From a virus (taxonomy: Duplodnaviria; Caudoviricetes), in the IMG/VR virus record IMGVR_UViG_3300028380_000482, positions 32,001 through 96,000 of that record: 64,000 nucleotides of DNA. One strand, given 5' to 3'. The notes beneath the pieces are model-generated. The model was given only the letters and a program-made list of their open reading frames with translations, was not told where the DNA came from and ran no database searches. The translations under genes and the position numbers were made by a program. Of the stretch, positions 1 through 64,000 are shown piece after piece. The number at the start of each line of letters is the position of its first letter. Position 1 is the first letter of the stretch.

Positions 1-1023
1 TCTCCAACGTTACTCAATCGAGCACAAACTGACCTGACCTTACCGGATAAGAAAAAAGAAGAAGTCAAAACACCGCCTGTACAAAACAAGGAACCGAAGA
101 CACAAGACAAGCACGAAGCGCGGCAGCCTAGGAAAAAAACTAAGTTTGAAGAGATGCAGGAAGAGAAGCGGTTAGCGGCGATTTGGGGGAATCCAATCTT
201 GGGACGAAACACCCCAAAGGAGGGTGCAAGGGACGGACAAGAACGTAACAACGCGCAACACGCGGCCCGCTCGCAAGAGCCATATAATGACCGAAACACT
301 TTGGAAGTGGGGTCAACAGGCAGCAATGGGCGCGGCAATCGCGCAGACGCAAGCCTCTGGAACACCAGCTTTGACAAGCGCGGGCGGGGGCAAGTTGGGG
401 TGCTGCAAGCACCGCTCTCGCCGTTCACGGTATGGCCGGGGTGGAAGATTCCGGTCAAGTTAGTGGATGGAATAGATACGGATACGCCCGGTCAGATTAG
501 CGCAGTAGTGGTGGAAGATGTGATGGACTCGGCAACCGGAATGCACAAGTTAGCACCTGCGGGCACGCGCATTCTCGGCTCATACGACGACCAAATTCAG
601 CGGAGTCAGGAGCGATTACCAAATGCTTGGCATACGCTGATCTTGCCGAATGGGCGACCAATGGCACTCGGCGGAATGCCGGGGGCCGACCGGCGTGGGG
701 TGTCAGGCATCCCGATTGAGACTGACAATCACACATGGGAAATCGCAGGCCAAGCCTTGCTAATGACGGTCACAGGGGCAGCGGGTCAGATGGCGACACG
801 AGGTGGGTACAGCGGCAACGACGTTGACCCAGGCGATGCGTTACAGATGGAAGCGGGGCGCGAGATTCGCCGATCGGGGCGGCAGGTAGCGGGGCGCGGG
901 TATCGGCAGCCGACCGGGAAAGCGGAGAGTGGGGAAGTCTTCTTTGTGGTTGTGACGGCCCCATTGGATTTTAAGCAGCCTTATCAAGAAGAGACTGACG
1001 TTGCATTTGGAGAAGAGGAATGA
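1..1023 (+). CDS. trbI: TrbI/VirB10 type IV secretion core protein (5' partial)
   Basis: Frame 1 is open from base 1. It contains IPVKLVDGIDTDTPGQISAVVVEDV, PAGTRILGSYD, WHTLILPNG and GADRRGVSG, matching the VirB10 C-terminal domain. Confidence 0.92.
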   Translation, partial: SPTLLNRAQTDLTLPDKKKEEVKTPPVQNKEPKTQDKHEARQPRKKTKFEEMQEEKRLAAIWGNPILGRNTPKEGARDGQERNNAQHAARSQEPYNDRNTLEVGSTGSNGRGNRADASLWNTSFDKRGRGQVGVLQAPLSPFTVWPGWKIPVKLVDGIDTDTPGQISAVVVEDVMDSATGMHKLAPAGTRILGSYDDQIQRSQERLPNAWHTLILPNGRPMALGGMPGADRRGVSGIPIETDNHTWEIAGQALLMTVTGAAGQMATRGGYSGNDVDPGDALQMEAGREIRRSGRQVAGRGYRQPTGKAESGEVFFVVVTAPLDFKQPYQEETDVAFGEEE

Positions 1024-1544
1024 CCTTCTTTCTTCGCATAATCGGTGCGTTCTGTCTGCTCGTGCTACTGAGCGGGTCGGCAATCAACTCGTTCGGGTAT
1101 CACGTCAACATTACGAACTCGCTCCCTCGCGGTATCTATAAGATAGCCCACGGTCCAGTAGTTCGGGGAGCTTTAGTAGTTGAGTGTTTGTTGCCGCAAC
1201 TCTCCAAATTGGGCAAAGATCGAGAATGGATCGGGCGCGGCTCGTGTCCAAGCGGCACTATGCCGATCCTCAAGCGCGTAGTCGGAGTGCCGGGTGATAC
1301 GGTGACGGCGACACGGGACTACATCCAGATAAATAGTTTCATTCTGCTTAATACGGCGTCTCTGTTTCTGGACTCACAGGGGCGGGAAATCCCCCGTGTC
1401 GGAGATCACACCTACACGTTACAGCCCGGACAAGTGTTATTGTTGGCCGACAATCCGCAGTCGTGGGATAGTCGGTACATGGGGTCAGTGGACATGACAA
1501 CGATCCTCGCAACGGCGGAGCCGGTCTGGTTATGGGAGGACTAA
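1020..1544 (+). CDS. traF: Conjugative transfer signal peptidase TraF (S26 family, pilin maturase)
   Basis: NITNSLPRGIY (catalytic Ser), ILKRVVGVPGD (catalytic Lys) and SWDSRYMG motifs; N-terminal TM segment. Confidence 0.92.
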   Translation: MTFFLRIIGAFCLLVLLSGSAINSFGYHVNITNSLPRGIYKIAHGPVVRGALVVECLLPQLSKLGKDREWIGRGSCPSGTMPILKRVVGVPGDTVTATRDYIQINSFILLNTASLFLDSQGREIPRVGDHTYTLQPGQVLLLADNPQSWDSRYMGSVDMTTILATAEPVWLWED

Positions 1545-1546
1545 TT

Positions 1547-1732
1547 ATGAAGTTTCCATTAGTAATCGCGGTAATTCTTATTGCAACAATTGCATTTAAT
1601 GTTGGGTATGAATTAGGCCAAGAAAAGGCTGTGATGTCGCAGTTTGAGCACCCACGGCAACATCTTGTAGACGTGTTTCCTGGTCATAAATTTGAGTTGC
1701 GAATAGATAAACTGCCCGCCGAGAAAGAATAA
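1547..1732 (+). CDS. Small membrane-anchored hypothetical protein
   Basis: GGAGG RBS, hydrophobic N-terminus, tight packing between traF and trbB. Confidence 0.6.
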   Translation: MKFPLVIAVILIATIAFNVGYELGQEKAVMSQFEHPRQHLVDVFPGHKFELRIDKLPAEKE

Positions 1733-1734
1733 GA

Positions 1735-2703
1735 GTGAACACGAATCGTCGCCAACAAGAGCGCATTCTTGACGATTACGAGACCGGGCTGGGGCCGGAG
1801 ATTCGGGCTGCGATCCGCAAACCGGGAGTCACGGGGATCAAGGTTGCGGGCGAAGACGGGAAGCTCTTTGTCAAAGAACACAGCACGAAATGGGTCGATA
1901 CGTTGCATGTGGTTCCGTTAGCGGTCCGGCGATCGACGCTCAATATGATCTCTTCCGAGTTGCAGAAGTCATTCAACGAAGAACAACCAAGCCTCTCCGG
2001 CGAGCTGCCGTTGACCGGAGATCGGGTGCAGGCGTGGTGCCCACCGATCGCAGACTACAGTCTCGTGATTCGCCGCCACAGCTCACAAGTCTTTTCATTG
2101 GAAGACTATGTTGACGCGCAGATCATGACCCAACAGCAGGCAAATACACTGCGGCGGTACGTACATGAGCATAAGAACATGGTGTGGTGTGGCGCAGTCG
2201 ATAGTGGCAAAACCACTGCCTGTAACGCCTGTCTAGCAGAAATCGAGGGAACCGAGCACGTCTTTATTGTTGAGGATACCAAGGAACTAAAGTTTCTCGG
2301 TGCAAACGTCACGCGACTCCAGACCGCCAATTCAGTCGCCACATTACAGAGTCTTGCGCGTGATTCGTTGCGTGGCGATTACGACCGCTTAGTGATCGGC
2401 GAGACACGCGGTGCGGAGGGGGTTGAGGTCATCAAGATATGGAACGCTGGGCGGCGGGGTGGATTTACCACGGTGCACGCGGAGAGTGCGGCGGGTGCGT
2501 TTGTGCGGTTTGCGATGTTCTGCCAGGAGGCAAGGTTGCCGCCTTTGTGGATGCAGATCGAGGCAGCGATTGACGTTGTGATACATATCGCCATGACGCA
2601 AGAAGGACGGAAAATTACCGAGATCAGGGAGGTGCAGCATGAAGACATAGACATACCAATTAAGTTCAAGCGGCAAGAAGAGATGTACACAACAACACAT
2701 TAA
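1735..2703 (+). CDS. trbB: TrbB/VirB11 traffic ATPase
   Basis: Walker A GAVDSGKTT, Asp box IVEDTKEL, Walker B LVIGETRG, His box TTVHA. Confidence 0.93.
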   Translation: MNTNRRQQERILDDYETGLGPEIRAAIRKPGVTGIKVAGEDGKLFVKEHSTKWVDTLHVVPLAVRRSTLNMISSELQKSFNEEQPSLSGELPLTGDRVQAWCPPIADYSLVIRRHSSQVFSLEDYVDAQIMTQQQANTLRRYVHEHKNMVWCGAVDSGKTTACNACLAEIEGTEHVFIVEDTKELKFLGANVTRLQTANSVATLQSLARDSLRGDYDRLVIGETRGAEGVEVIKIWNAGRRGGFTTVHAESAAGAFVRFAMFCQEARLPPLWMQIEAAIDVVIHIAMTQEGRKITEIREVQHEDIDIPIKFKRQEEMYTTTH

Positions 2704-2715
2704 AACAGCGAAAGG

Positions 2716-3051
2716 ATGGACGGTATGGTGCGTAGGGGACGGTTGATGTGGCTGGTTTTAATTGCGGTCGCGGCGATGGTCGGACTAGACGCCGGTGGGG
2801 CGATGGCCTCAGGAACAAACACGCTGGCGGAGATGAGTGCGGGCGTGTTAGCGGTTGGTGACACGTTACAGAGCACGGAAATCCTGGGGAGCATTGGATT
2901 CTGGCTGGTGGCGATTGGGGCGGTGGGGTTGCTGCGTGGGGATCTTGGTGCGGGGTGGGTGGGGTTCTTTATTCTGTTTATTGTCGTTGGCGTGCTGTTC
3001 AATGGACAGAATATCGTGGAGGCAATCGGCTGGTCGGCGGCGGTGGTATAG
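2716..3051 (+). CDS. trbC: TrbC/VirB2-like pilin
   Basis: 111 aa with a leader peptide plus two hydrophobic helices, between VirB11 and a VirB3-like gene, with TraF nearby. Confidence 0.7.
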   Translation: MDGMVRRGRLMWLVLIAVAAMVGLDAGGAMASGTNTLAEMSAGVLAVGDTLQSTEILGSIGFWLVAIGAVGLLRGDLGAGWVGFFILFIVVGVLFNGQNIVEAIGWSAAVV

Positions 3052-3105
3052 CTGCTTCCCCTCTGCCCTCTTGGCCGGAGGGCAGAGGGGCAACCTGGAG
3101 TAACT

Positions 3106-3474
3106 ATGAACGATTCATCATACCAAGACACTCCGATTATTCTACCCTTAGCGCAGGGTGTGTTGAGTCCTATCAAGCGGTGTGGAGCAGAACGCGCCCC
3201 TGCCGATTTGGGGTTTCTCCTTGCCTTTCTCATGTTCATGACAGCCATGTATGGACAGTGGAAAGCGCTCTACTTTCTTATTTTCCCGATCGCGTGGCAC
3301 ATCGCCTGGATGATCGTTTTCAGTCGAGACCCGCAGTATTGGGCGATCATGATGCGACAATGTGTGTGGTATCCGTGGCCGGAGTGGGTGCAAGCATGGC
3401 CGGGCCTTGGGGCAAAGCCAGTGAAGATCGAGGCAAGCGTGCCATTCAGGGGTGAGGCGGCGTATTCGGCATAA
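3106..3474 (+). CDS. trbD: TrbD/VirB3-like inner membrane protein
   Basis: PIKRCGAER resembles the P-x3-G-x-E-R motif, followed by two TM helices and an RDPQY motif; follows the pilin. Confidence 0.75.
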   Translation: MNDSSYQDTPIILPLAQGVLSPIKRCGAERAPADLGFLLAFLMFMTAMYGQWKALYFLIFPIAWHIAWMIVFSRDPQYWAIMMRQCVWYPWPEWVQAWPGLGAKPVKIEASVPFRGEAAYSA

Positions 3475-3819: not shown

Positions 3820-4221
3820 ATGCCGTTTCGCAAAGCGGATTACGGCCCCGAGTGGGACCGGATTAAGAAACGGATACTTGAGCGCGAGGGGTATCGGTGT
3901 CGCATGTGTGGAGTGAAGCGGTACTCAGTCGGGGTGCGGCATAAGGATGGCAGATTCACGTTACACATTGAAGCAGCGAGTTACGAAGAAGCCCGCCGCT
4001 ACGCCAGAGACGGCGGGGGATTGATCGTTGTCAAGCTCGCCGTTGCTCACTTAAATCATGACTTAAGTAATCACGAACAATTCTTGACGGCCTTATGCGA
4101 TTATCACCACCTAAAACACGATCAGCCACAGCACACGGAGAATTCCAAGAAGACACGGGCCGCGAAACGGGAGCGGATACAATCGGAGTTATGGGATGAG
4201 CAATACGGTGTACTCATTTAG
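3820..4221 (+). CDS. Phage-type HNH-like Zn-binding protein
   Basis: YGPEW...ILEREGYRCRMC...VAHLNH...ALCDYHHLKHD pattern. Confidence 0.75.
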   Translation: MPFRKADYGPEWDRIKKRILEREGYRCRMCGVKRYSVGVRHKDGRFTLHIEAASYEEARRYARDGGGLIVVKLAVAHLNHDLSNHEQFLTALCDYHHLKHDQPQHTENSKKTRAAKRERIQSELWDEQYGVLI

Positions 4222-4585
4222 GTTAAGCGACGAGATGGAAGTACGGGCGGAAGTACAGGCCAAACAGCGAGGGCTGAAGAGCGGGCACGCGCTCATGAAA
4301 GAGATCGTCGAGAACTATTTTAATGGAGAGGGAGACAAGCGCCAGAAGAACATGGACCTTTTGTTGGCCGAGATTGCAGGGTTGAAGGGTGAGGTAGGCG
4401 AGCTGACGTATGAAGTGATGCGGACGCGGGCGATGGTGGCGCGGGTGATTGATCCGAAGGGCGGAGAGCAAGGGGAGAAGGGAAAGCTGTTGATGGAGGT
4501 GGCGGGGAAGGATGTGGCAGCGTACGTGAACGGAGAGAATGGAGGAGCAGCATGTCAGACAAACGGACGAGAGAAGATTACATAG
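4196..4585 (+). CDS. Ribbon-helix-helix DNA-binding protein (TrwA/MobC-like relaxosome accessory candidate)
   Basis: N-terminal TVYSFRLSDE beta strand plus two helices, then a coiled coil; lies upstream of the coupling protein. Confidence 0.65.
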   Translation: MSNTVYSFRLSDEMEVRAEVQAKQRGLKSGHALMKEIVENYFNGEGDKRQKNMDLLLAEIAGLKGEVGELTYEVMRTRAMVARVIDPKGGEQGEKGKLLMEVAGKDVAAYVNGENGGAACQTNGREKIT

Positions 4586-4986
4586 CAGAACACGGGACGC
4601 TAGCGGCAGTAATCGGGCAAATGATTACGGACCTGAGCGCGGGCGAGATTTCTCAGGAAGAAGCACGGAGACGCTTTCTCGACTACACCATAGAATACGA
4701 GTCGCTTCCACAGCGCGAGGGCTTCATTCAAACGTCCTCGATTGTGTCAGGACGGACCGGCAAGCCGCTGGTGGATTACCGATGGGATGACAAGCGGGTT
4801 CAGTGGACACCGGAAGAGGCACAGGCTCATGCGTTAGTGATTCTCGCGTGTGCTGAGGCGGCGATCATGGACGCGGCAGTGGTGGAGTTTTTGAAGGTGC
4901 GGATGGATCTTGATTGGGAAAAAGCGGCAGCGTTCGTGCATGACTTGCGGAACTTCAGAGAGGACATGAAAAAGGAATGGCAGTAA
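4552..4986 (+). CDS. Hypothetical protein
   Basis: GGAGGAG RBS; operon-like overlap with the previous gene. Confidence 0.65.
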   Translation: MSDKRTREDYIAEHGTLAAVIGQMITDLSAGEISQEEARRRFLDYTIEYESLPQREGFIQTSSIVSGRTGKPLVDYRWDDKRVQWTPEEAQAHALVILACAEAAIMDAAVVEFLKVRMDLDWEKAAAFVHDLRNFREDMKKEWQ

Positions 4987-5186
4987 CCCCCGCTCGCCTT
5001 ACGGCGGTCCTTCGAGTGGCGAACTTTGTCCGCCGACTCTCAGACCCGCACGCTCGGCTTCGCTACGTTCACACCCTCTGTTGGGGTGACGCTGCTTAAA
5101 CTACCAGCGGCAGTCCTTCAGTTAGTGACCTCCGGCCACATAACTTCAGACCTGCACGCTTAGGCCCGTATCGAAAGGAATTCAAA

Positions 5187-5438
5187 ATGTGGACTCGACT
5201 GACGGACGAGATGGTCCTGACCGAGATTGTGTTGCTGCACGGGTGGGCGACGGCGTATACCGTGCAGCAGTTGGTTGAGGATCGGCTTGGTCGCAGAGTG
5301 AGGATGGGAGAGATTGGCAGGCGAGTACGGCGACTGTTTGCTGAACGGAAGATCAAAGTCATCGAGCACCGGGGCGGGGCGCCGTGGCGGTACGAGCCGT
5401 GGGGCTATGCGCTGGTGCGGGATGAATGCCACCCCTGA
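5187..5438 (+). CDS. Hypothetical protein, possibly winged helix
   Basis: AAAGGA RBS; basic helical pattern. Confidence 0.5.
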   Translation: MWTRLTDEMVLTEIVLLHGWATAYTVQQLVEDRLGRRVRMGEIGRRVRRLFAERKIKVIEHRGGAPWRYEPWGYALVRDECHP

Positions 5439-5465
5439 GAAGGGTGCAAGCGGAAGGGGTAGCCA

Positions 5466-5933
5466 ATGCGAGCATGGGTTGTGTGGCTGGTGTTGTGTGT
5501 GACGGTCGCGTTCGTGGTAAAGCAATTCCTACTGGCACCCCAGTGCCAGGGAGAGGGGTGGCAGAGTATGGAGACCGCGCCACGACAACCACCAACCGAG
5601 GGGACAGCGGCGATTCCGATTGAGTTGTGTTATGCACGCAAGGGAGGGAAGCCTTGGTATGGGCTCTTTGCGTGGACAAATAGAGTACAGGTTGGACCGT
5701 CTGCTGACGAAGCAATTCCTCGTATTTACCCACAAGAGAAAGTTGCAGTCTCTAGATGTTTAGGAACGGCGAACGAATGCAGTCAAGCCCTTGTAGTGAA
5801 ACTGAAAGAATCAGAGTGGGTGAATCTGACCAAGCCAGGACACGGAATTGGGGATGAGAAGTTTTTCCTATGGCGAGTACCAGAGACAACGGACCCGAAG
5901 GAGTATGAAGCACTCAATCTAAATAAGGAATAG
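5466..5933 (+). CDS. Membrane-anchored hypothetical protein with WQSMETAP motif
   Basis: N-terminal TM; W-Q-x-x-E-T-A-P motif common in small phage proteins. Confidence 0.55.
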   Translation: MRAWVVWLVLCVTVAFVVKQFLLAPQCQGEGWQSMETAPRQPPTEGTAAIPIELCYARKGGKPWYGLFAWTNRVQVGPSADEAIPRIYPQEKVAVSRCLGTANECSQALVVKLKESEWVNLTKPGHGIGDEKFFLWRVPETTDPKEYEALNLNKE

Positions 5934-5936
5934 ATC

Positions 5937-6230
5937 ATGCCACTGGGGAACCGCTGTTCACGCTGCGGGCGGGGGCTTGGGCCGGGGGCACAAGAGGCGC
6001 TCTTTGGGGGCCACGAGATTTGCTACGCGTGTTTGAATACCCCCGCCTATGAAGAGATGCTCAGTGAATTGCCAACGGACGAGAGAGCGGACTGGGACCG
6101 ACTGTCGTTATGGGAGAAGGGGTTTATTCGCTCGATTCGGGAGCAATACGAAGAGCGGGGGACGTTGAGCGATTTGCAGGCAGAGAAGGTCGAACAGGTA
6201 TGGGAACGGTGGCAACGGAGACGGAGATAG
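5937..6230 (+). CDS. Zn-finger hypothetical protein
   Basis: CSRC...CYAC and LSLWEKGFIRS. Confidence 0.6.
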   Translation: MPLGNRCSRCGRGLGPGAQEALFGGHEICYACLNTPAYEEMLSELPTDERADWDRLSLWEKGFIRSIREQYEERGTLSDLQAEKVEQVWERWQRRRR

Positions 6231-6459
6231 GCGTGCCTTGGAAATACTTTTTGCTTGTGTTGCCGGTGTGGGGGATGTTCACTGCGGCGGTTGGGATGGT
6301 GTTTCATGATTTGGGGTACAAGGAAGGGCTGGTTGTTTGTGAGCATCCGAAGCAAAGTAAACTACAGGAATGGCGGTATGCAGGTGACTGTGTTTGCCTT
6401 GACCCGACCGGCAATCTTGTGTCTTCATCGTGCGAAGCAAAGGGGAGTGGGGGGATCGC

Positions 6460-6804
6460 ATGTCAAAAATAGGGAGTTGGGTTTTCGACAAGATATTCGG
6501 ACGGAAGCTCCTGACCGACGATCTGGTGTTTGCGGTCATTGCCGAGATGACCCCCAGGCCCGCGCATGCAGAAGATGTAGGAGAAATCATCGCGAACCGC
6601 GTAGGGCGGGACATCAGCAAGCGGGTGCTACTCACACACTTTGATAATCTCTTAGAGGCTGGGCGGATTGTCGCGGTGTGGGGTGGGGAGGGGCAGGAAG
6701 GGATACACAGACGCAAGTACGCCCCGTTCTTTGCGGTGTTACGGCCCGAACTCCGCCCTCCTGGGAAAGGCGTGCTGCTGACACCGGCCAGGGAGAAGAA
6801 GTGA
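6460..6804 (+). CDS. Hypothetical protein, possibly winged helix
   Basis: ATG at 6460 after a G-rich RBS; GTGA overlap with the coupling protein gene. Confidence 0.5.
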   Translation: MSKIGSWVFDKIFGRKLLTDDLVFAVIAEMTPRPAHAEDVGEIIANRVGRDISKRVLLTHFDNLLEAGRIVAVWGGEGQEGIHRRKYAPFFAVLRPELRPPGKGVLLTPAREKK

Positions 6805-8606
6805 CAAAGACAAACGCGCTTCTCTGGAAGCTCGAACAACTCAAGACGTGGTCTCAAATCCAAGCCTCCGCCATGCAGTATTGGTTCCGGTGGGGCATTG
6901 TTGTGTGGCTGGTCAGCGCTGTGATTATTCTCGCGATGGGACTGACGATCGAGCCGGAACGGAAACAGAACGCAGTCACGTGGATAATCGCTAGCGTCGG
7001 TGCCAAGGCGCGGATCAAGACCATAGGACTCAAGACAGTCTGGTGGAAAGGCGACCCCTACGAGCCGCAGGTATTGGCAGAGTGGATGGACAAGCATGTG
7101 TACGGCGGGGCGCGGTTAAGTCAGTGGCTCGCGTGGGCGGCGGTGATGGGAATTGGACCAGTGAGTCTGATTGGCAGTATTGGGTTGTGGCGGGTACGAA
7201 AGAAGGCCGCGAAGGATGGAGAGCAACACATCAGAGGGGCGCAGATTCACACAGTTGAGGAGCTACAGAAACGAATAGGAATCAGCAGAGGAGACGGAGT
7301 TTTTGTTGGCGAGGTCTTCGTGCCGAGGGAGCAGATCAACGCCCACACCGGGATTGTCGGCTCGACTGGGGCAGGGAAATCGACGCTGATGGAGGGGATA
7401 CTTGAGCAGATCGAAGCGAGGGGAGAGCGGGTGGCGCTGGTTGATGTGGAGGGAACGTTTACGGCGAAGTTTTTCAATCCCAAGCGCGGGGATGTGATTC
7501 TGAATCCCTTGGACCGACGCTGGCAAGGGTTTGACATCAGCGCCGAGTGCGAACGGTTAGAAGACTGCGAAGCGATTGCGACGAGCCTGTTTCCGATTAC
7601 CGGACGGATGCGCGGGACGACCGGAGAGTATTTTGCTCGCGTCGGGCGGCGCGTGATCCGGGATGTGCTCAATGTGATGCGACAGCAGGGCAATGCCGAC
7701 CTGCGTGTGATTCCCGAACTCCTCCGGCATCCGAAAGCCCTGCTGGAGATGCTCGGAGACACGGAGGCAGCGGCGGAGCTGGGGTACAAAGACAGCAGAG
7801 AACGGCGGCAATTTCTTTCGGGCATTCGCACGGCGACAGACAGCTTTCGGTATCTCGATCCACAGCCAGGCGACTTGGCGAGAGACACTGTCCCGTGGAG
7901 TGCCCGGCAATGGGTCACACAAGGGGAAGGCTGGTGCTTCTTTACGGTGAGTGAATCGCAAAAAGCAGCGGTGTTGCCGTTTATTGGCTTAGCGCTTGAC
8001 CTCCTCGGACGGCAATTGTTAGAACAACCGCTTCGTCCTGAGAAACTCCTGTGGCTCTATTTTGACGAACTCGGAGACTTGCCCGCGCTAGCGACGTTGC
8101 CACGGATTGCCACACGAGTACGGAAGCGCGGTGGGGCGATCGTTTACTCGATCCCGGACCGGAGCAAGTTAGAATCGGTGTACGGAGAACACGAGACTGA
8201 TTCGATTCTGAACGCGGCGGCGGTGCGCGTATATATGCAAACTAATGACCCCAAGACCCAGGAGTGGGTTGCGGCCAGTATCGGGCGGCATGATGTGGCA
8301 CGGCAGGTCGAGAGCCACACGATGGGGAGTAAAGATGGACGGGATGCGGTGCATCTCAATCCCAACCTGAGCCGAGAAGAATACGCGATCACGCCCTCAC
8401 AGGCCGGGCAGATTCCGGTCGGGCGTGCCTACTTGAAGGTGGGCGCCTTTGGCACGGCGTATATTCGGATTCCCCTGGTGGAGCGGGAGGAGCAGGAGTC
8501 CGGCTTTCTGCCTCGCGCTGAAGCCGAAGAACTAAGAGAGGCTGAACAAGAGGAAGCGGCAGATTGGCAAGCGGACGCGCTGGCGGATGTCAGGCGAGCG
8601 ATTTAA
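6801..8606 (+). CDS. traD: Type IV coupling protein, TraD/TrwB family
   Basis: Two TM helices, HIRGAQI, Walker A HTGIVGSTGAGKS, DVILNPLDRR, Walker B LYFDELGDL, RKRGG. Likely start is GTG at 6801 after GGAG. Confidence 0.93.
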   Translation: MTKTNALLWKLEQLKTWSQIQASAMQYWFRWGIVVWLVSAVIILAMGLTIEPERKQNAVTWIIASVGAKARIKTIGLKTVWWKGDPYEPQVLAEWMDKHVYGGARLSQWLAWAAVMGIGPVSLIGSIGLWRVRKKAAKDGEQHIRGAQIHTVEELQKRIGISRGDGVFVGEVFVPREQINAHTGIVGSTGAGKSTLMEGILEQIEARGERVALVDVEGTFTAKFFNPKRGDVILNPLDRRWQGFDISAECERLEDCEAIATSLFPITGRMRGTTGEYFARVGRRVIRDVLNVMRQQGNADLRVIPELLRHPKALLEMLGDTEAAAELGYKDSRERRQFLSGIRTATDSFRYLDPQPGDLARDTVPWSARQWVTQGEGWCFFTVSESQKAAVLPFIGLALDLLGRQLLEQPLRPEKLLWLYFDELGDLPALATLPRIATRVRKRGGAIVYSIPDRSKLESVYGEHETDSILNAAAVRVYMQTNDPKTQEWVAASIGRHDVARQVESHTMGSKDGRDAVHLNPNLSREEYAITPSQAGQIPVGRAYLKVGAFGTAYIRIPLVEREEQESGFLPRAEAEELREAEQEEAADWQADALADVRRAI

Positions 8607-8889: not shown

Positions 8890-9204
8890 ATGAAACTTCT
8901 CGTCGTACTCTTGTTGTTGATGACGGCCAGTGTGTGTGACGCCGCCACACTGGCGTGGACCGACAAATCTAATAACGAGCAGGGGTTTATCGTCGAGAAG
9001 AAAGTCGGGCCGAAATGGACCGAGATTGGCCGCCCGATCGCCAACAGCACCATGTTTCTTGTGAAGATTCCGCCGAACACCTACCCCTGTTTCCGGGTGC
9101 GGGCCTATAACGCGACGGGGAAAAGTACACCGAGCAACGTCGCGTGCACCCCCAAAAAGGGTGCGAGCAAGAAAAAGCCAGGCCCCTCGAATGTGGGAGA
9201 ATAA
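8890..9204 (+). CDS. Secreted single fibronectin type III domain protein
   Basis: Signal peptide plus LAWTDKSNNEQGFIVE...FRVRAYNATGKSTPSN. Confidence 0.8.
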   Translation: MKLLVVLLLLMTASVCDAATLAWTDKSNNEQGFIVEKKVGPKWTEIGRPIANSTMFLVKIPPNTYPCFRVRAYNATGKSTPSNVACTPKKGASKKKPGPSNVGE

Positions 9205-10130: not shown

Positions 10131-10163
10131 CTATTGACATATTCCCCTTTCTATTGCTATACT
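10131..10163 (+). promoter_or_regulatory. Sigma70 promoter of the HTH gene
   Basis: TTGACA-18-TATACT with extended TG; near-duplicate at 10426-10457. Confidence 0.75.
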
Positions 10164-10176
10164 CCAATACTATAAA

Positions 10177-10398
10177 ATGAAATATCTCACAGTCAAAATA
10201 GCGGCGCAGCAGTTAGGGATCTCTACCAAGCGGGTTTCCAAGCTCTGTAACGAAGGAACAATCAAAGCCGAACGTGCAGGCGCACGAGTGTACATTATCG
10301 ATCCAGACTCACTTGCTCAGTACAAACACAGCGAATCCCGCAAACATACACCACACACCTTCTCTGGTGGCCGTCCACCGGCCACGAAAAAAAAATAA
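10177..10398 (+). CDS. Excisionase/MerR-like HTH DNA-binding protein
   Basis: YLTVKIAAQQLGISTKRVSKLCNEGTIKAERAG and a C-terminal GGRP. Confidence 0.85.
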   Translation: MKYLTVKIAAQQLGISTKRVSKLCNEGTIKAERAGARVYIIDPDSLAQYKHSESRKHTPHTFSGGRPPATKKK

Positions 10399-10425
10399 GA
10401 AATATTTTCATTTGCTCTCTTTTAT

Positions 10426-10457: not shown

Positions 10458-10497
10458 TAAATACATGAGAGCGAACCAAGGAAAGGAAGAAAAGAAC

Positions 10498-11952: not shown

Positions 11953-11958
11953 TTAACT

Positions 11959-54900: not shown

Positions 54901-54972
54901 ATCGGTCGCACGAACGAACTCATTGGCTCCTTGGGTTGCGCCGCTGGCATCGATGGAGACATTCAAGGCCAT
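48955..54972 (-). CDS. Tail tape measure protein
   Basis: 2005 aa, Ala/Gln-rich helical, Gly-rich hydrophobic segment, follows the tail chaperones. Confidence 0.93.
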   Translation of the reverse strand: MALNVSIDASGATQGANEFVRATDAMGDAAERTVSDVEKIAETLRRLRSAQAQGATGGFGELSLLRQQIAIQEQAKQGAISLAEAERRVGEAALFAATGNRQLAQQLSTARQEFAKNAQSLQEVRNATQQTGVAASGLGPILQQAFGVFTGITAATAVTGLLNGVKAIAQEGIRYNATLEQQRIGLASLVAAQDKIVDSQGRTVEGAEKFAAAQQVASGIIKDIQKDALETVATTEQLVDAFQQAKGPLTAAGLSLKEAQQATTLIVQAATAIGIPLRQVSQEVRAIADGQIDQNARLANALQIRQREVVAAREQGRLFEFINERLSAFALAGTAVQNSFNGLTSSIADISGQLLGRAFQAPFDLLKDALQGVLEFLLEVNRQLNNTKEILPQIKLPQTQAGVEIGAGSGAGAATQQTSQAAAAAQDAIKVYSFFRDVLSSVGTELKIVETGVQTLATGAAAGATDVAELAANLVGADKTADTFAKSALVLRQNLTRALKDSADATQEFTSQFGVGATAAERASGQFASVARSLTDTASAAKNLPSNLSLAAGAMLGLAQAAAQYNVEAQKTVEISPELAKAIRAAQLAAAQSSAALIEEGAAATGNASAFQDAALSRIEAARRTELATVTNVDQRAAIEEKFLNQQTAITGKIVEIKLSAEQRITQASQAQAETRAQAAEAEARRRLSSAEAALALTNTQIQALAGLANVEDKRATLTQQAAQQEQTVGQARVGSVQAQISAERARQEILRNSISLLQRVAEEERRRPIAQGNQGEALTQAANLAKITQGITQQNTELAQSQAKVQALGAEITSEQSKSVIARINGEQEVLKQQQENFQTQLKQTQQIEAVRAATAAVEQAQQQQAQTGLDNRIALEEEQLNLLKAQGASFETLSAAQNRLIALAKERAQADIRAAENAVRLAQQQLSTVQARQAQIRDQIAATGETIELQGQLNTLLLEEQNAVAALTGAQTTLAGAQSAAAVEGIKAQQTILDLQKQQAERALVSTGTIRDFFTDFASGIAEGGQKLGAIFDDLGQSISTRFFSQLLVGKEEGFDKPIIENVSDLFGGNGILSSLIGQGGQGLFSNLFGGAGGGGGTEGLVFTQGQNFGEVFGTGFQGGFTQISDEVFAAGSAPLASSQASAATAGTSFGEIFGAAAGGAAGIGLGKGLAGALGLGGSKQAGLGGTIGGTVGAIGGGIIGSFFGPGGTALGAAIGGGVGSLFGSIIGGLFKSTPSKGTEIRKGVKDLLKDIQVTFASEIDSGEYFFEETKKLAQKMFGGSDGQDFLKASKIVLEDKIGPELSKQLQALGAALTADQAKKLGKSIEQTGTTFGNLLLDNLGVDPEKIGGAIQETVQKAGLSFAELATKLNSLFEDNLIGIEFYQDAIQGTVDIFNQDLPAAINVAAITLRSFNEAGIFDVEKFQRDLQEVTDIFDVITSSFVDVVKAAKPGEDVGKLLAEQIRDGFVDLAIDRFLKDFIENQLFEGIDLSNGIDEGEATKLKERAEAAAGAVGEIRDAFGQVADAAADATEKATDLFDTIRDISQQRIDLRFNVIGDLQSIGAISPVEAARGRIAGQQGVLSGLGASTRTTFTDAELAQGREAVRSLRQATVELFQAQEQEAQNALQNRIRDINAEFDAKRQSLQKEAEAARAASEQRINALQNEKDQVQELFQARIDALQEELQLAQEFRRVAEDLNQTITGLVQSSSNLSKPEQLGFLQQQASGIRGRIAGATPEQLPDLLQQLSRNLTQQLDVGKGFLDPTAFNNLFNSVVGELEKARAQATEAGSRVEAIQQQIADTTVQSAAALLSIDARIEQERAEAAAAQLAFQAQADALSQQEQAAVQAATAATTIEINKLRIEAADEIRNLAVIEDQILADQRDRALREAELTQEQIDVLGRLDLSINTLTGVIGNFLTDIISTGPSTTGGPSGQKFVLGSTGGNGTTAGQTNAIAVNVSVPVQVGGAVSQNTNVTENAIIQMVVSDLKKGGKISAALKQGGKG

Positions 54973-55427
54973 CAGCTAATGACCCCCCTCGGCTCAGGCT
55001 TCGCCAATTCCGATGGCTGCTCTTTCAGTTCTTTTTCTTCATCCTGGCGCTTGTGAACGAGCGAGACAAATTCAATATCGAGCCCCCGTACACAGTGCAG
55101 CAGCCAATCCCGATGGGCAAAGTTATGCATCCCGAGATGATTGCGGAGATAGCCAATGATCGCCGACGTCGGAATCGCGCCGATGCTGAACCCCGTCTGC
55201 CGGTCAGCTTGCAGCATCCAGAACGTGTCCCACGGCAACTGGAGGTGGGGCGGGAGCCGGGGTTGGTCGATCAGCGGTTGCACGTCATGCGGCATCGTCT
55301 CTCCGGTCGGGTCATCCTCTAGCGCTTCCAGAATGTAGCCTTGGAAATCTTCGATGATGGGACGGTCGGTGTCCTTATGCTGTACCTTCCAGTGATAGTG
55401 CCATTGGAGGTACTCGGTTAGTTTTTT
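54972..55427 (-). CDS. Frameshift extension of the tail assembly chaperone (gpGT-like)
   Basis: The -1 frame is open from the slippery site through MPHDVQP... to 54972. Confidence 0.8.
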   Translation of the reverse strand, partial: KKLTEYLQWHYHWKVQHKDTDRPIIEDFQGYILEALEDDPTGETMPHDVQPLIDQPRLPPHLQLPWDTFWMLQADRQTGFSIGAIPTSAIIGYLRNHLGMHNFAHRDWLLHCVRGLDIEFVSLVHKRQDEEKELKEQPSELAKPEPRGVIS

Positions 55428-55843
55428 AAGTCCGCCCTCAGTTGGGCTTTGCCAAACCGCGACTTGTCACGGGCAATACGAAAGATGGCATCCCGGAGCC
55501 GGTCGTAATTCGCCAGAATCCGCAGTGCCTCACTTTCCGAATACGGCACATCCACCCCGTTCTCTTGCAGCCCGCACCAGTCTTTGACGAGGTGTTTCGC
55601 CCCCGCCGTGTTCTCGATCGAGCGGGCAACTTTGGTCGGAAACTGTCCGCCGTTGGCGTCCGAGAGGTGCATCTTCTCCCGCATGATGTGGGTCAGAAAA
55701 TCTATGTACTTGGGGGAATCGGCAGAGGCGATTTGAAACCACGTGCCGGTGCGATGGCCGTTGTTCTCGGCATCTGCGGACATCGGCACCCACACGCCTT
55801 CTTCTTCGGCGAGTTGGTCACTGAGAAATTCGTTCAGATCCAT
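55418..55843 (-). CDS. Tail assembly chaperone (gpG-like)
   Basis: AGGAGG RBS; EEEGVWV...LVKDWCGL...VPYSESEA; ends in LKN on A AAA AAC. Confidence 0.85.
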   Translation of the reverse strand: MDLNEFLSDQLAEEEGVWVPMSADAENNGHRTGTWFQIASADSPKYIDFLTHIMREKMHLSDANGGQFPTKVARSIENTAGAKHLVKDWCGLQENGVDVPYSESEALRILANYDRLRDAIFRIARDKSRFGKAQLRADLKN

Positions 55844-55974
55844 GCGGGGGGTCCTCCTGATTAGCGTGCTCCTGTTCACGAAACCGTCATGAGTGAATAA
55901 AGTGGGCTGACGGACGACACAGGAGGTGAGACATCGCCGGTTCGGGTCGCGCACCCTAGCCAGCCCACAGCGCC

Positions 55975-57177
55975 TTACGCGTGAATTAAATCGACCTGAA
56001 ACATGCTGGCCGTGAGGTTATCGCGTACAGCGGTCCACGTGAGGTTTTGCAACACTGGCTGGTTCTGCCCTTGCTTCCGTAACTGCCCGGTCAAATACAT
56101 CGCCGGAGCGGTAAAGATCATGTAGTTGGGCGGCGTCGAGCCATCCTTAAACGGCAGTACCAGCGACGTGAGCGTGTGATTGAGCACCTTGCTCAGCATG
56201 GTCACGTCTTCAAAATACGCTTCGAACGGGCCGGTACAGGAGAACGTACCATCAATCAGCGCCGCTGCGGCTGCGTTGGCGATCGCTTCCGCTTCCGTCA
56301 CGTTACCGTTGACCGTGACGCCGATTTGCCGCAACCGGGTCAAGAGCGGCGTGTTCCCTTCGTACACAATCGGCACGTTACTCGTCGCGTTCAGCACGGG
56401 GGCGGTATCCGCCGCGACGATGGAGCCTGAGCCTTTCATCGAGGACGTTTGCGTGGTGACGTTATTGCCCAAGAACCGTGTCGTCCCGGTGAGCTTTTGC
56501 CGAGCTTGGGCGGTCATGGCAAATTCCACCGGGCGGAACCCGACGCCGCGCTGGTAAGTGGTGGTCAAATCGGAGAAATTCTCTTCGACGGAGAAGGACG
56601 TTTGCGTGGCGATCCCCGTCCGGGCCATCTTGCCTTTGAGCGTCACTGAGGGGCCAGCAGTCTGGGTCACAATCGTGGCGGCGCCACTCGCTTTGAAGAA
56701 CAAACCAAAGACAATCTTTCCAGCGACCACGCTGTCTACTTGCCCGGCTCCGTCATTGAGCCCGCCGGTCGTGCCGCTCACTCGTAGCCACTGCTTCACG
56801 ACAACGCCAGTTGCCAGAAGTCCGTTGGCGGAATCGTTCACTGAATTATCCACACTGGAAAAGGCGAGGGTCGTGCCGGTGAGGGTAACTGTCACCACCG
56901 CGCCGCAGAGGGTCGCGATGATAAAGTCGTCGAACGCCCCGCCTGCCGAGACTTCGTAGTTAATGGCGAAGTTAGCGGAGTAGCCGACCGGAATTTGATC
57001 GGTGACTAACCGAGACGCGTCGATTTCTTCCGACTGCACATTCTGTTCGGTCCGCACGAGACCGTCGCCGCCAGCGGTGAGACGGACGGTTTTAATGTTG
57101 GGGTTGGTCGGGGTGACCCCGTAGGTAGATTCTTGAATGTAGTAGGTGCCGACGCGACTACTGCTCGCTAAAGGCAT
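55975..57177 (-). CDS. Major tail tube protein
   Basis: ESTYGVTP...QSEEI..SR N-terminus; position before chaperones and TMP. Confidence 0.85.
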   Translation of the reverse strand: MPLASSSRVGTYYIQESTYGVTPTNPNIKTVRLTAGGDGLVRTEQNVQSEEIDASRLVTDQIPVGYSANFAINYEVSAGGAFDDFIIATLCGAVVTVTLTGTTLAFSSVDNSVNDSANGLLATGVVVKQWLRVSGTTGGLNDGAGQVDSVVAGKIVFGLFFKASGAATIVTQTAGPSVTLKGKMARTGIATQTSFSVEENFSDLTTTYQRGVGFRPVEFAMTAQARQKLTGTTRFLGNNVTTQTSSMKGSGSIVAADTAPVLNATSNVPIVYEGNTPLLTRLRQIGVTVNGNVTEAEAIANAAAAALIDGTFSCTGPFEAYFEDVTMLSKVLNHTLTSLVLPFKDGSTPPNYMIFTAPAMYLTGQLRKQGQNQPVLQNLTWTAVRDNLTASMFQVDLIHA

Positions 57178-60184: not shown

Positions 60185-61144
60185 CTAGGCAACAGCATTC
60201 TCAAAAAAGTAGCCGACATCCGGCGCGACGACTTTGTTGTCCCACGCCATTTCGATTTCCAGCCGGTCACTCTTGATTTCGGGAATGTAGAAGCGCGTCA
60301 CGCCGACATTGAGTCCTAATCCTTGCGAGACGCCTTGCCACATGAAGGTATAACCGCCGCTTGGGGTATCGAGCGCGGGCGTCGGTGAGGCATACACCAC
60401 CAGGGCGTGCTTGCCTTGGATGAAGTCATAGTTCGGGGACCCGCCTTCCACGTTCGTGGCTTTGACGGCACCGGAGACCAACACCCGATCAATGCCGAGG
60501 ATGTTCGCCATCATCTCTTCCGGCAGAATGCGCGTAGTCGTGGTGCTAATACGGTCGATAAACTGCGGATGATCTTGGAGGATATTCCACACGTCCCACC
60601 CGAGCACGAGGCGATTGGGTTTCATCCCGGAAATCACCATCACTTGCCGGATTGCCGCGCGAATATTGGCAATCGGATCACTGCTGGTGTAGTCCGACCA
60701 TTTGATAAAGTCGGTCGTGCCCGTCTTCGTCGTCCCCCACACACCTGCTTTGAAGTAGTCGTTGGCAAACTGCACTTCTTGTTTGATGAGGCCCATTTGG
60801 GTGAGCCAAGTCGTTGCATTGCGGTCCGGGTCATTGGGCGGCATCGACGCGGCACGGGTCTGATGGTCGATGTCCTTATGCAAAGCAAACACATCGACGG
60901 AATAGCCGTCCGTGGATTCCCGGTAGCCCGAGCCGGCAGACTCCGTCCCTGGCGGGCGAACCTGCATCTGGTCGCGCATGAAGTCATTTTTGTCGAAGAT
61001 AAAGTATTTGCCGGTGGGCCGATCCACCGGCACGACTGGAAAGACTTGGGTCGCAATGAACCCGGTCTGCATCTGCATGTAGGCCACGGAGATGTTGGTC
61101 TGGATTTCGTCGATATACACTTGCCCGATATGTGGTTGCGGCAT
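60185..61144 (-). CDS. Major capsid protein (HK97 fold, gpE-like)
   Basis: IDEIQTNISVAY...FIATQVFPVVPV...GMKPNRLVLG...GYFFENAV. Confidence 0.9.
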   Translation of the reverse strand: MPQPHIGQVYIDEIQTNISVAYMQMQTGFIATQVFPVVPVDRPTGKYFIFDKNDFMRDQMQVRPPGTESAGSGYRESTDGYSVDVFALHKDIDHQTRAASMPPNDPDRNATTWLTQMGLIKQEVQFANDYFKAGVWGTTKTGTTDFIKWSDYTSSDPIANIRAAIRQVMVISGMKPNRLVLGWDVWNILQDHPQFIDRISTTTTRILPEEMMANILGIDRVLVSGAVKATNVEGGSPNYDFIQGKHALVVYASPTPALDTPSGGYTFMWQGVSQGLGLNVGVTRFYIPEIKSDRLEIEMAWDNKVVAPDVGYFFENAVA

Positions 61145-61697: not shown

Positions 61698-63101
61698 CTA
61701 GTGACCGAACGACCGATTCCGCAGTTCGGCGGTATAGCGTGCGGCCAGCTCCGGGTCCGCCTTCGTTACCATATCAATGGCAATTGGCTTTGAGGTCGCT
61801 TTCCCCTCTTTCACCAACTGTTCGGCCCGTGCCATCAACTGGCCGTAGGCGCTGGCATCGCCGGTCACCATCTCTGAGCCGCCGATTTCTTTGAACAGGT
61901 TGCTGGTCTTCAGTTGCTCGTTGGCCGCCTTGAACGCCGTCACAACGAGGGCGGCTTCCTCTTTGGTAAGCGTAAGCGGCGTCTCGCGTTTGCTATCCAG
62001 TTTCCACAGCAACACGCCTTTGACGGTCGGGGTTCCCTGAATATGGGACAGGTCGTTTTTGGCGAGGGTGACGAACTCCACTTGCTCACGCCGATCCTGT
62101 TCAGCTTTCGCCATTGCGACGGCCTCGCCTGCGGTCTTGGTGGCTTCCGCTGCTTCTTTGCGCGCACTCTCAGCGTCAGCCTGGGCTTTCTCCACATAGG
62201 CACGGGCTTCCGGCGAGAGACTCTTTAGTACGTCGTCCGCAGATTTTGCGGTTGCCTGATGCGGGGTCGGCGGCGCAGGGGGTGGGGTCGGTGCAGGCGG
62301 CGGCGTCGGATGAGGAGCGGGAGGAGTCGGATCTTGCGGATCGGCAGCCGTGAGTTTTTTTTCATCAGGGGGCATAGTGTCATCTCCTTTTGCTTGCACC
62401 GTTTTTGCTGGTGGCATGGGACGGGGCATAGTCTTATCGTCTTGGTAGTCCGGCTCTTGTTCCCGGATCATGGCCTTCAGCGTTTCGAGCATCCGTTTCA
62501 TTTCGGCCATACGGGACGTGCTAATTTTACGACCGGCCTTCGTCATCTCGTCAGACTTCCCGCTTTTGAAGTCCGCCACACACTGGTTGACGGCCTCGGT
62601 GAACTGCCCGATGGATTGCTGCACCATCGCCGGACGATTGGCGCTGCTATCATTCATGATCGAGGACATCGATTCTTGAAACGCGCCGTAAATATCCATG
62701 AGCTGGTAGCTCATGCGGCGCATGGCTTTTTCTTCCATCACGTCATCGAAGGTTTCAGCCTTGGGGCTCTCGCCATAATCTTTCTCAATATCAGTAGCTA
62801 TCTGTGTGGTGTCCTCAGCGGACCAGCCGAGTTTTTTGCCTACCGCAGCGAGCAGCAGGCGCGGCCATGAGGAAGACTCAGTGCGCTCAGGAGGTGATGA
62901 TGAGTCGGTCCCCCCAACAGAGGGGGTAAACTCGGCTGGTCCAGCGGAGCTTTTGGGGGGCGTCGCGTCGGATGCCCCCGCACGAGGAGAGTCCTCTGGC
63001 GAGGTCTCCTTCTTGAACAAGAAAATTTTCGCGCTTTTATTCGCGGGCGAAGACACAAAGCTACCTTCGTTGACTTCGAGGTCAGTGAGTTGATTAGGCA
63101 C
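61698..63101 (-). CDS. Capsid scaffolding-like protein
   Basis: Probable GTG start at 63101; LTDLEVNEGSFVSSPAN, KAGRKIS, Pro-rich linker, coiled coil, FKEIG. Confidence 0.75.
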   Translation of the reverse strand: MPNQLTDLEVNEGSFVSSPANKSAKIFLFKKETSPEDSPRAGASDATPPKSSAGPAEFTPSVGGTDSSSPPERTESSSWPRLLLAAVGKKLGWSAEDTTQIATDIEKDYGESPKAETFDDVMEEKAMRRMSYQLMDIYGAFQESMSSIMNDSSANRPAMVQQSIGQFTEAVNQCVADFKSGKSDEMTKAGRKISTSRMAEMKRMLETLKAMIREQEPDYQDDKTMPRPMPPAKTVQAKGDDTMPPDEKKLTAADPQDPTPPAPHPTPPPAPTPPPAPPTPHQATAKSADDVLKSLSPEARAYVEKAQADAESARKEAAEATKTAGEAVAMAKAEQDRREQVEFVTLAKNDLSHIQGTPTVKGVLLWKLDSKRETPLTLTKEEAALVVTAFKAANEQLKTSNLFKEIGGSEMVTGDASAYGQLMARAEQLVKEGKATSKPIAIDMVTKADPELAARYTAELRNRSFGH

Positions 63102-63504
63102 TTGTGGGTATCCTCCGCCCGGTTCCACCGATAGAGAACGCGGAATACTCGCCGCTCTTGATGCGGCTCCAGGTCTCATCGTCGTCGACTTTGTAGCCGA
63201 CCCACCACGCACACTCCGGCAGAATGCCAGGGGCGATCCCGAGGGCGGCGGCTTTCTCTTTGGTGAAGCACATGGACTCCACGAGTCTTCCGACGCCAAC
63301 CCGCTGATGCATGTCGCCTGCGTTTCTCGCAAACAAGTTATAGTTGTAGACCGCCTTCTCTAATTCTTCGGGTTCGATGTAGTCATCCTGGGCATCGACG
63401 ATGAGATGCCCGTGTTCATCTTTGGAGACGGAGAGGAAGCCGAACACGAGCCGTTGGTCGGTATCGACTTTTTTGACGGTCAGTGGAAGTTCCCAAGTTG
63501 CCAA
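63094..63504 (-). CDS. XkdF-like prohead serine protease
   Basis: QRLVFG...DAQDD...ELEKAVYNY...DMH...WWVGYKV...IKSGEYSAFSIGG. Confidence 0.88.
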   Translation of the reverse strand: MATWELPLTVKKVDTDQRLVFGFLSVSKDEHGHLIVDAQDDYIEPEELEKAVYNYNLFARNAGDMHQRVGVGRLVESMCFTKEKAAALGIAPGILPECAWWVGYKVDDDETWSRIKSGEYSAFSIGGTGRRIPTSA

Positions 63505-63527
63505 GCGAGGTCCCCCAAACGAATAAC

Positions 63528-63577
63528 AAAAAAGCCGCGCCCCAAAAGTAACGAGTGGTTACTCTGGAACGCGGCTC
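63528..63577 (-). terminator. Terminator-like hairpin in the leader of the head operon
   Basis: AGCCGCG...AGTAAC/GTTACT...CGCGGCT followed by a U-tract on the - strand. Confidence 0.65.
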
Positions 63578-63711
63578 ATAAACTTGCGCCGCGAATCTCA
63601 CACCCGCTGTGTGAGTGAGACGTGACTACAAACGATGTCTCTATGTCTGATTTACGCTACAGAACAGGACGCTGACTTTCAAGAGGCTTTCCCCTCCGAC
63701 TGCGAGTCGTG

Positions 63712-63993
63712 TCACTTGCGCGCGCGGTCTTCGAGTATCTGCGCCCGAATCCGTTCTTTCTCTGACAATGAATCTTTTCCAAGGAACGCCACACCAAAGG
63801 GAATCGGCTGGCCGTCTTTCGTTATTCCTTCGGCGATGGCGGAGGCGCTCTCACTAGGGACAGGCAAATCGACGATTCTGAGAATGGCTCTAGTCGGGAT
63901 AGTCATATCACCGCAGCCTTGCTGCTTCATGTGTTCCTGCGTCGGGAAGGTCAGATGTGGAACCACGACTTTGCATTGATCAGTGTCGTGCAA
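63712..63993 (-). CDS. Hypothetical protein (may extend beyond the window)
   Basis: ORF on the late-gene strand. Confidence 0.45.
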   Translation of the reverse strand: MHDTDQCKVVVPHLTFPTQEHMKQQGCGDMTIPTRAILRIVDLPVPSESASAIAEGITKDGQPIPFGVAFLGKDSLSEKERIRAQILEDRARK

Positions 63994-64000
63994 GAGCCAG

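Follow-up and report, generated by a model that had tools for sequence, protein, structure and literature searches.

The stretch of DNA analysed here, a window of 64,000 nucleotides covering bases 32,001 to 96,000 of the 107,563-bp IMG/VR virus record IMGVR_UViG_3300028380_000482, comes from a soil metagenome sequenced with short reads. It carries genes for a type IV secretion system (T4SS) on one strand and a virion operon on the other, and both very probably belong to a single element, a real phage with an intact T4SS. An earlier note, made from the window alone, had proposed such an element and had added that it might spread both as a virion and by mating. The points it had marked for inspection were circularity, terminase and portal, VirB4, a relaxase, Rep and ParAB, a misassembly between the two arms, and relatives with the same gene combination. 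The single-element proposal held: at least 10 independent assemblies contain the join of the two arms, the ends of the record are closed, the composition is uniform, and the T4SS lineage recurs in other phage genomes. Spread by mating was not borne out, as it requires a relaxase and none of any searched type is present.

The T4SS module is located at 23.2–40.6 kb of the record on the plus-strand half of the genome (the + arm) and is of the Trb/P type (mating-pair formation type T, MPF-T). VirB4 is encoded upstream of the window and matches the NCBIfam model TrbE over its full length (2e-88, 297 bits); TrbJ-like, TrbL/VirB6, VirB8 and CagX/VirB9 proteins are encoded there as well. The window opens within the gene for TrbI/VirB10 (394 aa; positions 1–1023, with the start 161 bp before the window; Pfam TrbI, 8.5e-36, 124 bits), a protein 36–39% identical in the relatives L015 and L016. 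Overlapping its stop codon is the gene for a TraF-type S26 peptidase, the predicted pilin maturation enzyme (1020–1544; Pfam Peptidase_S26, 3e-14, 53.7 bits). TraF is 44–52% identical in relatives, and its motifs NSLPRG and KRVVGVPGD are intact; we take them to be those that surround the catalytic Ser and Lys in S26 peptidases. The VirB11/TrbB ATPase follows at 1735–2703 (Pfam T2SSE, 1e-27, 97 bits; Walker A GAVDSGKT), and further downstream lies the gene for a TrwB/TraD-type type IV coupling protein (T4CP) of 601 aa (6801–8606; Pfam TrwB_AAD_bind, 4e-69, 234 bits; TraG-D_C), whose Walker A and Walker B motifs are invariant across its clade. A Walker A motif is present in all three T4SS ATPases, and the Pfam scores of TrbL, VirB8, CagX and TrbI are all above cut-off. 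The earlier note had recognised TrbI, TraF, TrbB and the coupling protein on the + arm, and all four are present at or near the places it gave, with Pfam support.

Candidates for the pilin and TrbD genes that it had also reported are present, but not at 5466–6230, where it had put them: the open reading frames (ORFs) there encode a secreted protein and a zinc-finger protein that are missing from relatives, and we rejected them as pilin and TrbD. Instead, a candidate VirB2/TrbC pilin of 108 aa is encoded at 2725–3051 on the + strand, with a signal-peptide-like N-terminus, two transmembrane helices and conservation in relatives (35–40% identity in L112 and L121); a hidden Markov model (HMM) search with it gave no match. 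Directly after this gene lies a perfect 13-bp hairpin (3058–3090), followed by the gene for a VirB3/TrbD-like membrane protein (3106–3474, + strand; Pfam VirB3 at E = 0.019, below cut-off), which is 42–49% identical in L112 and L121 and has an RDPQY motif in common with L015. Small secreted proteins are predicted both inside and after the module, for example at 5466–5933 and 8890–9204. As judged from these genes, the T4SS appears complete and intact, including the core, the ATPases with the coupling protein, and TraF, and it is probably functional.

The two arms meet at a convergent junction (21041–21442), which is crossed by contigs carrying the identical 205-aa neighbour gene. The identical endolysin gene is present on 23 contigs; at least 10 of these, from various ENA, Logan and JGI samples, cross the junction. 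A 28,971-bp contig begins in the tail fibres and reaches a methylase/HNH unit of the + arm, which the JGI contigs L012 and L013, at 100% identity, tie to the T4CP and the T4SS. In addition, proteins identical to the T4CP and the large terminase subunit (TerL) of this genome are both recorded on one contig of 107,660 bp, possibly the parent scaffold of this record.

The record is classed as linear, with a CheckV completeness estimate of 93% and a GC content of 55% throughout; it contains neither tRNAs nor a terminal repeat. An independent ENA contig (L102) answers the question of circularity, since it bridges the record ends, matching the final 12,147 bases (99.86% identity) as well as the initial 1,148 bases (100%), and the gene order across the ends is matched by a second contig of 34 kb. 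Start (position 1) and end (position 107563) lie inside a homopolymer of 11–13 C residues, at which three JGI assemblies halt at the identical base while the ENA assembly reads through. The record ends are therefore an assembly break and not a physical end, and physical cos ends were rejected on the same grounds. The map closes into a circle at ∼107.55 kb without host DNA. The break splits a 345-aa gene of unknown function.

As the earlier note had stated for the window, no integrase, transposase or housekeeping gene separates the arms. A six-frame search of the genome for the tyrosine integrase family PF00589 gave no match, and neither a transposase nor a housekeeping gene is found anywhere in this copy of the genome. 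Thus, the integrase and chromosomal flanks that define integrative and conjugative elements (ICEs) are both lacking. Some population variants (L100 and other contigs) carry a 358-aa TnpB gene (Cas12f1-like_TNB) at approximately 17.4–18.6 kb of the window, where the adjoining genes are only 87–93% identical; this is an IS200/605-type insertion polymorphism within the phage population. Megablast with 20 kb of the sequence matched none of 50,697 phage records and none of 72,556 plasmids.

The minus-strand half of the genome (the − arm, record 53.4–107.4 kb) is a full siphovirus late region. Its major capsid protein (60185–61144; phrog_1005, 2e-83) is 42–51% identical to homologues in IMG/VR phages. 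Terminase and portal, which the window does not contain, are found beyond it: a GpA-type TerL (phrog_675, 1e-72; Pfam GpA), a Mu-type portal (phrog_113, 1e-55; Pfam Portal_Mu) and a Mu-F-like protein. An S78-family prohead protease is encoded at 63094–63504 on the − strand (precomputed Pfam match Peptidase_S78_2 for the identical gene in L102 and L103), and a head-tail connector is also present. The tail assembly chaperone and major tail (tube) protein genes lie at 55418–57177 (− strand; phrog_313, 3e-15, and phrog_290, 3e-49), and one protein of this arm matches Pfam Phage_tube_2 at 1e-22. Based on its size and its position downstream of the chaperone genes, the 2005-aa product of 48955–54972 is a putative tape measure protein; it has no HMM match. 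Tail fibres of beta-helix and lectin-like kinds, spikes and distal tail proteins fill positions 23538–48955 (PHROG tail fibre/spike; Pfam Beta_helix, Big_5, Laminin_G_3 and LtfC), among them a beta-helix protein of 1171 aa, a Laminin_G_3 protein and others of 811–1218 aa. The lysis cassette (21443–23520) encodes a GH19-like endolysin (21751–22368; Pfam Glyco_hydro_19, 1e-4, with 22.6 bits below the cut-off of 25.5) and small membrane proteins, including one of the THIVI_2564 family (PF28077). With TerL, portal, an HK97-type major capsid protein, a tail module and lysis genes all predicted, the element is assigned to the Caudoviricetes.

The head-tail-lysis module that the earlier note had described as uninterrupted is thus complete, but one + strand gene interrupts it. 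This gene lies inside the tail operon at 28934–29800 of the window (about 29024–29800) and encodes ∼258–288 aa; a LAGLIDADG identity was not confirmed, as there was no such Pfam match at E ≤ 0.001. Searches of PDB sequences and the ESM Atlas returned nothing for the unknown proteins of 384, 273 and 326 aa. A 586-aa DNA methylase with a faint N6_N4_Mtase match heads the terminase operon (L003:11412-13172; record 105412–107172).

Apart from the T4SS, the + arm (record 0.3–53 kb) encodes DNA metabolism of the phage type, with two SNF2 helicases, a UvrD helicase, a C5 methylase, HNH nucleases, an RNase H-like protein, a VRR-NUC-like protein and a primase-polymerase (phrog_2478). Its 48 further small ORFs have one Pfam match in total (HTH_17); small ORFs nearly devoid of Pfam matches are typical of phage early regions. 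The earlier note had seen the transfer genes run into a helicase-methylase unit, and this is indeed the case: an HTH_17 protein, an SNF2/DEAD helicase, an HTH-HNH nuclease and an N6/N4 DNA methylase are encoded at 10177–13778 on the + strand, the last three at 10498–13778. A sigma-70-like promoter precedes the unit at 10134–10163; scans of the DNA for sigma-70 promoters and terminators were near background.

We asked how old the association between T4SS and phage might be. In tetranucleotide composition, the T4SS block is as close to the other blocks of the genome (r = 0.82–0.90) as those are to one another (0.72–0.92). Cellular T4CPs, which a scan of a genome collection found nearly exclusively in metagenome-assembled genomes (MAGs) of Acidobacteriota, are only 26–31% identical to that of the phage, and plasmid homologues reach at most 26%. 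A T4CP profile search of 1.84 billion representatives, by contrast, yielded a graded series of closer proteins. In the tree, 13 clusters form a T4CP clade (SH-aLRT 100) containing every T4CP whose context was inspected, and all inspected contexts of clade members, viewed in pieces of 20–30 kb, are phage-like. About 15 genes are shared with relatives at 30–55% identity: VirB4, a B5-like gene, B6, B8, B9, B10, TraF, B11, the pilin, a VirB3-like gene, HNH, a ribbon-helix-helix (RHH) gene, T4CP and a small divergently transcribed regulator.

The genomes around these modules differ. A 184.7-kb ENA contig (L105) has the order VirB8-B9-B10-TraF-B11...HNH-RHH-T4CP and, 13.6 kb downstream on the same strand, genes for a tail-spike-like protein, a Terminase_6 TerL and a portal protein (phrog_145, 1e-121). 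This TerL (L105:15379-17091) also bears an intein-splicing domain according to a weak, precomputed Pfam match. On a 78.6-kb contig (L112), a beta-helix tail spike gene and small lysis-type genes lie directly upstream of the T4SS, the latter including the THIVI_2564 family, as in the lysis cassette of the phage described here. On a contig of 13.7 kb, DUF5131 and a helicase come after the T4SS, and this helicase is 68% identical to the one of this phage. In a distant clade member (L123, JGI 3300049734, 63.9 kb), the T4CP gene is found near a GIY-YIG nuclease instead of HNH and beside an early region with integrase, superinfection-immunity, CI, Cro and RecT genes, including a full integrase/CI/Cro lysogeny module. 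The search for relatives thus revealed the same T4SS lineage, at 36–55% identity, in three or more further phage-like genomes whose terminases and layouts differ.

Because the composition of the T4SS matches that of the genome, cellular and plasmid homologues are distant, and the lineage recurs in phage-like genomes, we do not consider it recent cargo. The sequences point to an old module that is mobile but phage-resident, and to a small clade of soil phages that apparently keeps it while swapping everything else. The phages with the most similar capsid proteins (42–51% identity) share only the capsid and portal genes and have no T4CP; two phages with direct terminal repeats (89 and 57 kb) were accordingly rejected as sister genomes without T4SS. 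A tblastn search with the T4CP against the 50,697 phage records gave no match, VirB4 matched only three unannotated faecal fragments among them, and a single-protein T4CP scan of IMG/VR found none. Three IMG/VR contigs from a T4CP alignment scan (26–36% identity) were rejected as lineage relatives; one of them (L019) has a relaxase and lacks Pfam Phage_capsid (PF05065). A scan of JGI metagenomes returned only fragments of the same element. Acidobacteriota, the source of nearly all cellular T4CPs retrieved, are only a lead for the host: weaker homologues of the capsid protein occur in 8 of 401 sampled genomes of this phylum.

Just upstream of the T4SS operon, the phage genome encodes a 515-aa galactose-oxidase/glyoxal-oxidase-like protein (Kelch and GO-like E-set; L002:3055-4602, record 21055–22602). 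Two small − strand RHH-like genes 3′ of it face the T4SS operon, and one of these is kept with the T4SS in relatives.

What the transfer machinery lacks is a recognisable relaxase. Six-frame searches with the Pfam families PF03432, PF08751, PF07514, PF01076 and PF02486 (Relaxase, TrwC, TraI_2, Mob_Pre and Rep_trans) gave no match at E ≤ 1, and no HUH or three-histidine motif was found among ORFs of at least 120 aa. Of the 80 nearest cellular loci, 65 have a gene of ∼907 aa directly after the T4CP gene, with matches of its product to the structures of TraI and TrwC (1e-60 to 1e-37). A custom MOBF profile built from 50 of these cellular relaxases recovered, as a positive control, the relaxase of an unrelated IMG/VR contig; it matched nothing in this genome or in the loci of three relatives. 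Relaxase, Rep and ParAB are the points of the earlier note for which nothing was recognised. A self-transmissible element requires a relaxase and an origin of transfer (oriT). The genome encodes a T4CP (234 bits) and no relaxase, and by a definition that combines VirB4, T4CP and relaxase (as in CONJscan) it is not a self-transmissible conjugative element.

What the phage lineage appears to keep where its cellular relatives have TrwC is a pair of small genes. The first encodes an HNH endonuclease of 133 aa, a candidate DNA-processing nuclease (3820–4221, + strand); the earlier note had already called it, and phrog_1571 agrees (5.7e-15). Its zinc-binding and catalytic residues (Cys/His/Asn) are invariant over four relatives. 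The second gene (4196–4585, + strand) overlaps the first and encodes an RHH-like protein of 129 aa in the position of TrwA/TraY, assigned by its sequence pattern, with no Pfam match, and kept in L015, L016 and L121. In relatives, the pair lies directly upstream of the T4CP gene; here it is parted from it by 2.2 kb of unrelated DNA with six small + strand ORFs (4552–6804, according to the calls of three independent assemblies), the last of which overlaps the T4CP start by 4 bp. None of the six has a BLASTP match in relatives or a Pfam match.

A further feature of the + arm is a tandem array of 14-bp palindromes at 14522–14677, in which a 21-bp unit (GGGTGCAAGCACCCCGACAGA) is perfectly repeated 7.4 times. 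It is located upstream of a gene for a secreted 134-aa protein (14692–15096), of which L123 has a homologue. Sites of the form CACCC-N7-GGGTG occur 12 times (0.14 expected); single palindromes are located at 210, 5072, 5430 and 9147 of the window and at record position 104189, four of these five within the T4SS region. The array looks like a site for a dimeric DNA-binding protein, such as an iteron, centromere or operator. Contig L013 terminates at the array, and so does a 62.5-kb contig, by its gene table.

On balance, we lean towards a genuine tailed phage with a long-resident, intact T4SS that would build a channel to pass a substrate. The phage in an infected or carrier cell would build a mating-type pilus and a channel, through which the coupling protein would pass a substrate to a touching cell. 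Our leading guess is that this substrate could be DNA of the phage itself, which the HNH/RHH pair would cut or nick instead of a relaxase; such a contact-dependent route would complement virions in soil, where particles diffuse poorly. That the phage genome is the substrate is a tentative idea, which we regard as rather unlikely, and a shade more doubtful still is the full proposal that this soil phage lineage spreads both as virions and by T4SS transfer of its own genome, via a relaxase-free HNH/RHH module docking on the T4CP.

Several points weigh against this picture. A relaxase of the MOBP/Q, MOBF, MOBH, MOBV or MOBT type and an HUH motif appear to be absent, and an oriT was not identified among the generic inverted repeats and the palindrome family, with no relaxase type to guide the search. 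An HNH nuclease forms no covalent 5′ protein-DNA link, the link that pilots DNA through a T4SS, so that the proposed HNH-based route is, to our knowledge, without precedent. The pilin, VirB3 and VirB5 assignments are weak or sub-threshold; the TrbJ-like (VirB5-like) protein scores 20 bits against a cut-off of 100. Finally, the segment C1 8–32 kb is linked to the rest of the genome solely by this record and the 107,660-bp contig that may be its parent scaffold.

It is possible, if again rather doubtful, that the T4SS is real and functional and yet does not move the phage genome, but exports proteins such as effectors, toxins or anti-defence factors into neighbouring cells, mobilises other DNA with a host relaxase, or makes mainly adhesion or aggregation pili; it would in any of these roles be an auxiliary module of benefit to the phage or its carrier cell. 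The consistent absence of a relaxase across the phage lineage fits this idea, as do the small secreted proteins encoded within and after the module (5466–5933 and 8890–9204) and the MOBF relaxases of cellular relatives in the probable host phylum, which could act in trans. A T4CP with no relaxase of the system's own is also found in T4SSs that translocate effectors, among them the X-T4SS of Xanthomonas and VirB/D4 of Bartonella. However, the T4CP is of the TrwB/TraD type, with 4,939 of its 5,000 best PLSDB homologues on conjugative plasmids, and no effector-like gene is conserved with the module. The sole conserved non-T4SS genes encode a nuclease and a DNA-binding-type RHH protein, pointing to DNA, and in one distant relative a GIY-YIG nuclease is encoded in this region. 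An improbable explanation is that the T4SS is passive cargo from a conjugative element that has lost its relaxase and is decaying without a role for the phage. The missing relaxase would agree with decay, and so would the insertion that separates the RHH gene from T4CP in this genome, ∼2.2 kb of small ORFs without relation to the module; against it, all core genes are intact with their catalytic motifs, the set of ∼15 genes is complete at 30–55% identity in at least three other phage backbones, the composition is fully ameliorated, and T4SS sequences are 100% identical between samples.

The remaining explanations question the unity of the element. Two elements side by side, either a conjugative plasmid or ICE with an inserted prophage or a cointegrate, are very improbable, although phage-ICE tandems and prophage-carrying conjugative megaplasmids have been described (PMC13651849; bioRxiv 10.64898/2026.02.21.707213) and the 21-bp array at 14522–14677 is iteron-like. 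The map closes at 107.55 kb with only phage-type genes around the T4SS; there is neither a PF00589 integrase nor a relaxase, and Pfam scans of the called ORFs revealed no plasmid Rep or Par family. A virion arm without the + arm would have no replication genes, and in relatives the T4SS lies at different places inside the phage genomes. A chimera made in assembly, with a phage contig fused to one from a conjugative element, could be suspected given the short-read metagenome, the record end in a homopolymer and other assemblies that break at repeats. We consider it excluded for practical purposes, because the sole possible misjoin point, the convergent junction at 21.0–21.4 kb of the window, is crossed by 10 or more independent contigs, which stem from many samples and assemblers. 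The ends are also closed by an independent contig, and the identical T4CP and TerL share the 107,660-bp contig (the possible parent scaffold).

Compared with known systems, the phage-borne module most resembles MPF-T conjugative T4SSs with a DNA-processing (Dtr) operon of the R388 kind, whose nearest cellular examples are from Acidobacteriota. Both have the same core set from VirB4/TrbE to a TrwB-type T4CP, the nearest MAG locus (L020) has the same local order VirB10-TraF-VirB11...T4CP, and an RHH gene lies upstream of the T4CP gene in R388-kind systems and in the phage alike. The Dtr genes of R388 are arranged as trwA (RHH), trwB (T4CP) and trwC (relaxase), and the phage layout appears to mirror this logic with the nuclease changed. 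The two differ in the T4CP, which is only 24–31% identical, in the absence of a relaxase with HNH in the Dtr position, and in the carrier, which is a tailed phage genome.

Phage-plasmids of the P1, N15 and SSU5 groups (Pfeifer et al. 2021, PMC7969092) are similar in having a closed, extrachromosomal-looking genome with a full virion module and no integrase, and they also carry modules otherwise typical of plasmids. Unlike them, this phage has no recognised lysogeny repressor and no recognised plasmid Rep or ParA/ParB. When the called ORFs of the two arms were scanned with Pfam, no Rep, ParA or ParB family appeared, and the replication genes are of the phage type (primase-polymerase phrog_2478), leaving the 21-bp array as the sole plasmid-like trait, so that the status of a phage-plasmid is not established. 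The nearest published neighbours are the phage-ICE tandems and prophage-bearing conjugative megaplasmids (PMC13651849; bioRxiv 10.64898/2026.02.21.707213), which likewise combine phage and conjugation genes on one DNA molecule. In those cases two separable elements have accreted, and each of the two brings an integrase or relaxase of its own, whereas here the T4SS is an internal phage module of genome-like composition without a relaxase. In full-text literature searches, no description of a tailed phage that has a complete T4SS came up.

Horizontal gene transfer is described as having two separate engines, phages and conjugative elements. The closed genome of a phage that has relatives and encodes a mating-type machine, complete and conserved, indicates that both toolkits can combine stably in one replicon, and this may be the first kind of virus that also hands something, perhaps its own genome, straight to another cell. 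That a small HNH nuclease consistently takes the place of the relaxase poses a concrete, testable question about how DNA is fed into a T4SS. If the machine moves proteins or other DNA, it would represent a new kind of phage auxiliary function. Should the phage genome be what it moves, current ideas on host range, on the evasion of defences and on spread through soil and other structured habitats would have to be revised, and virus-prediction and plasmid-typing pipelines would need a new class. Spread both as virions and through the T4SS, if true, would define a new class of mobile element, the conjugative phage, as well as a new route by which DNA enters a T4SS.

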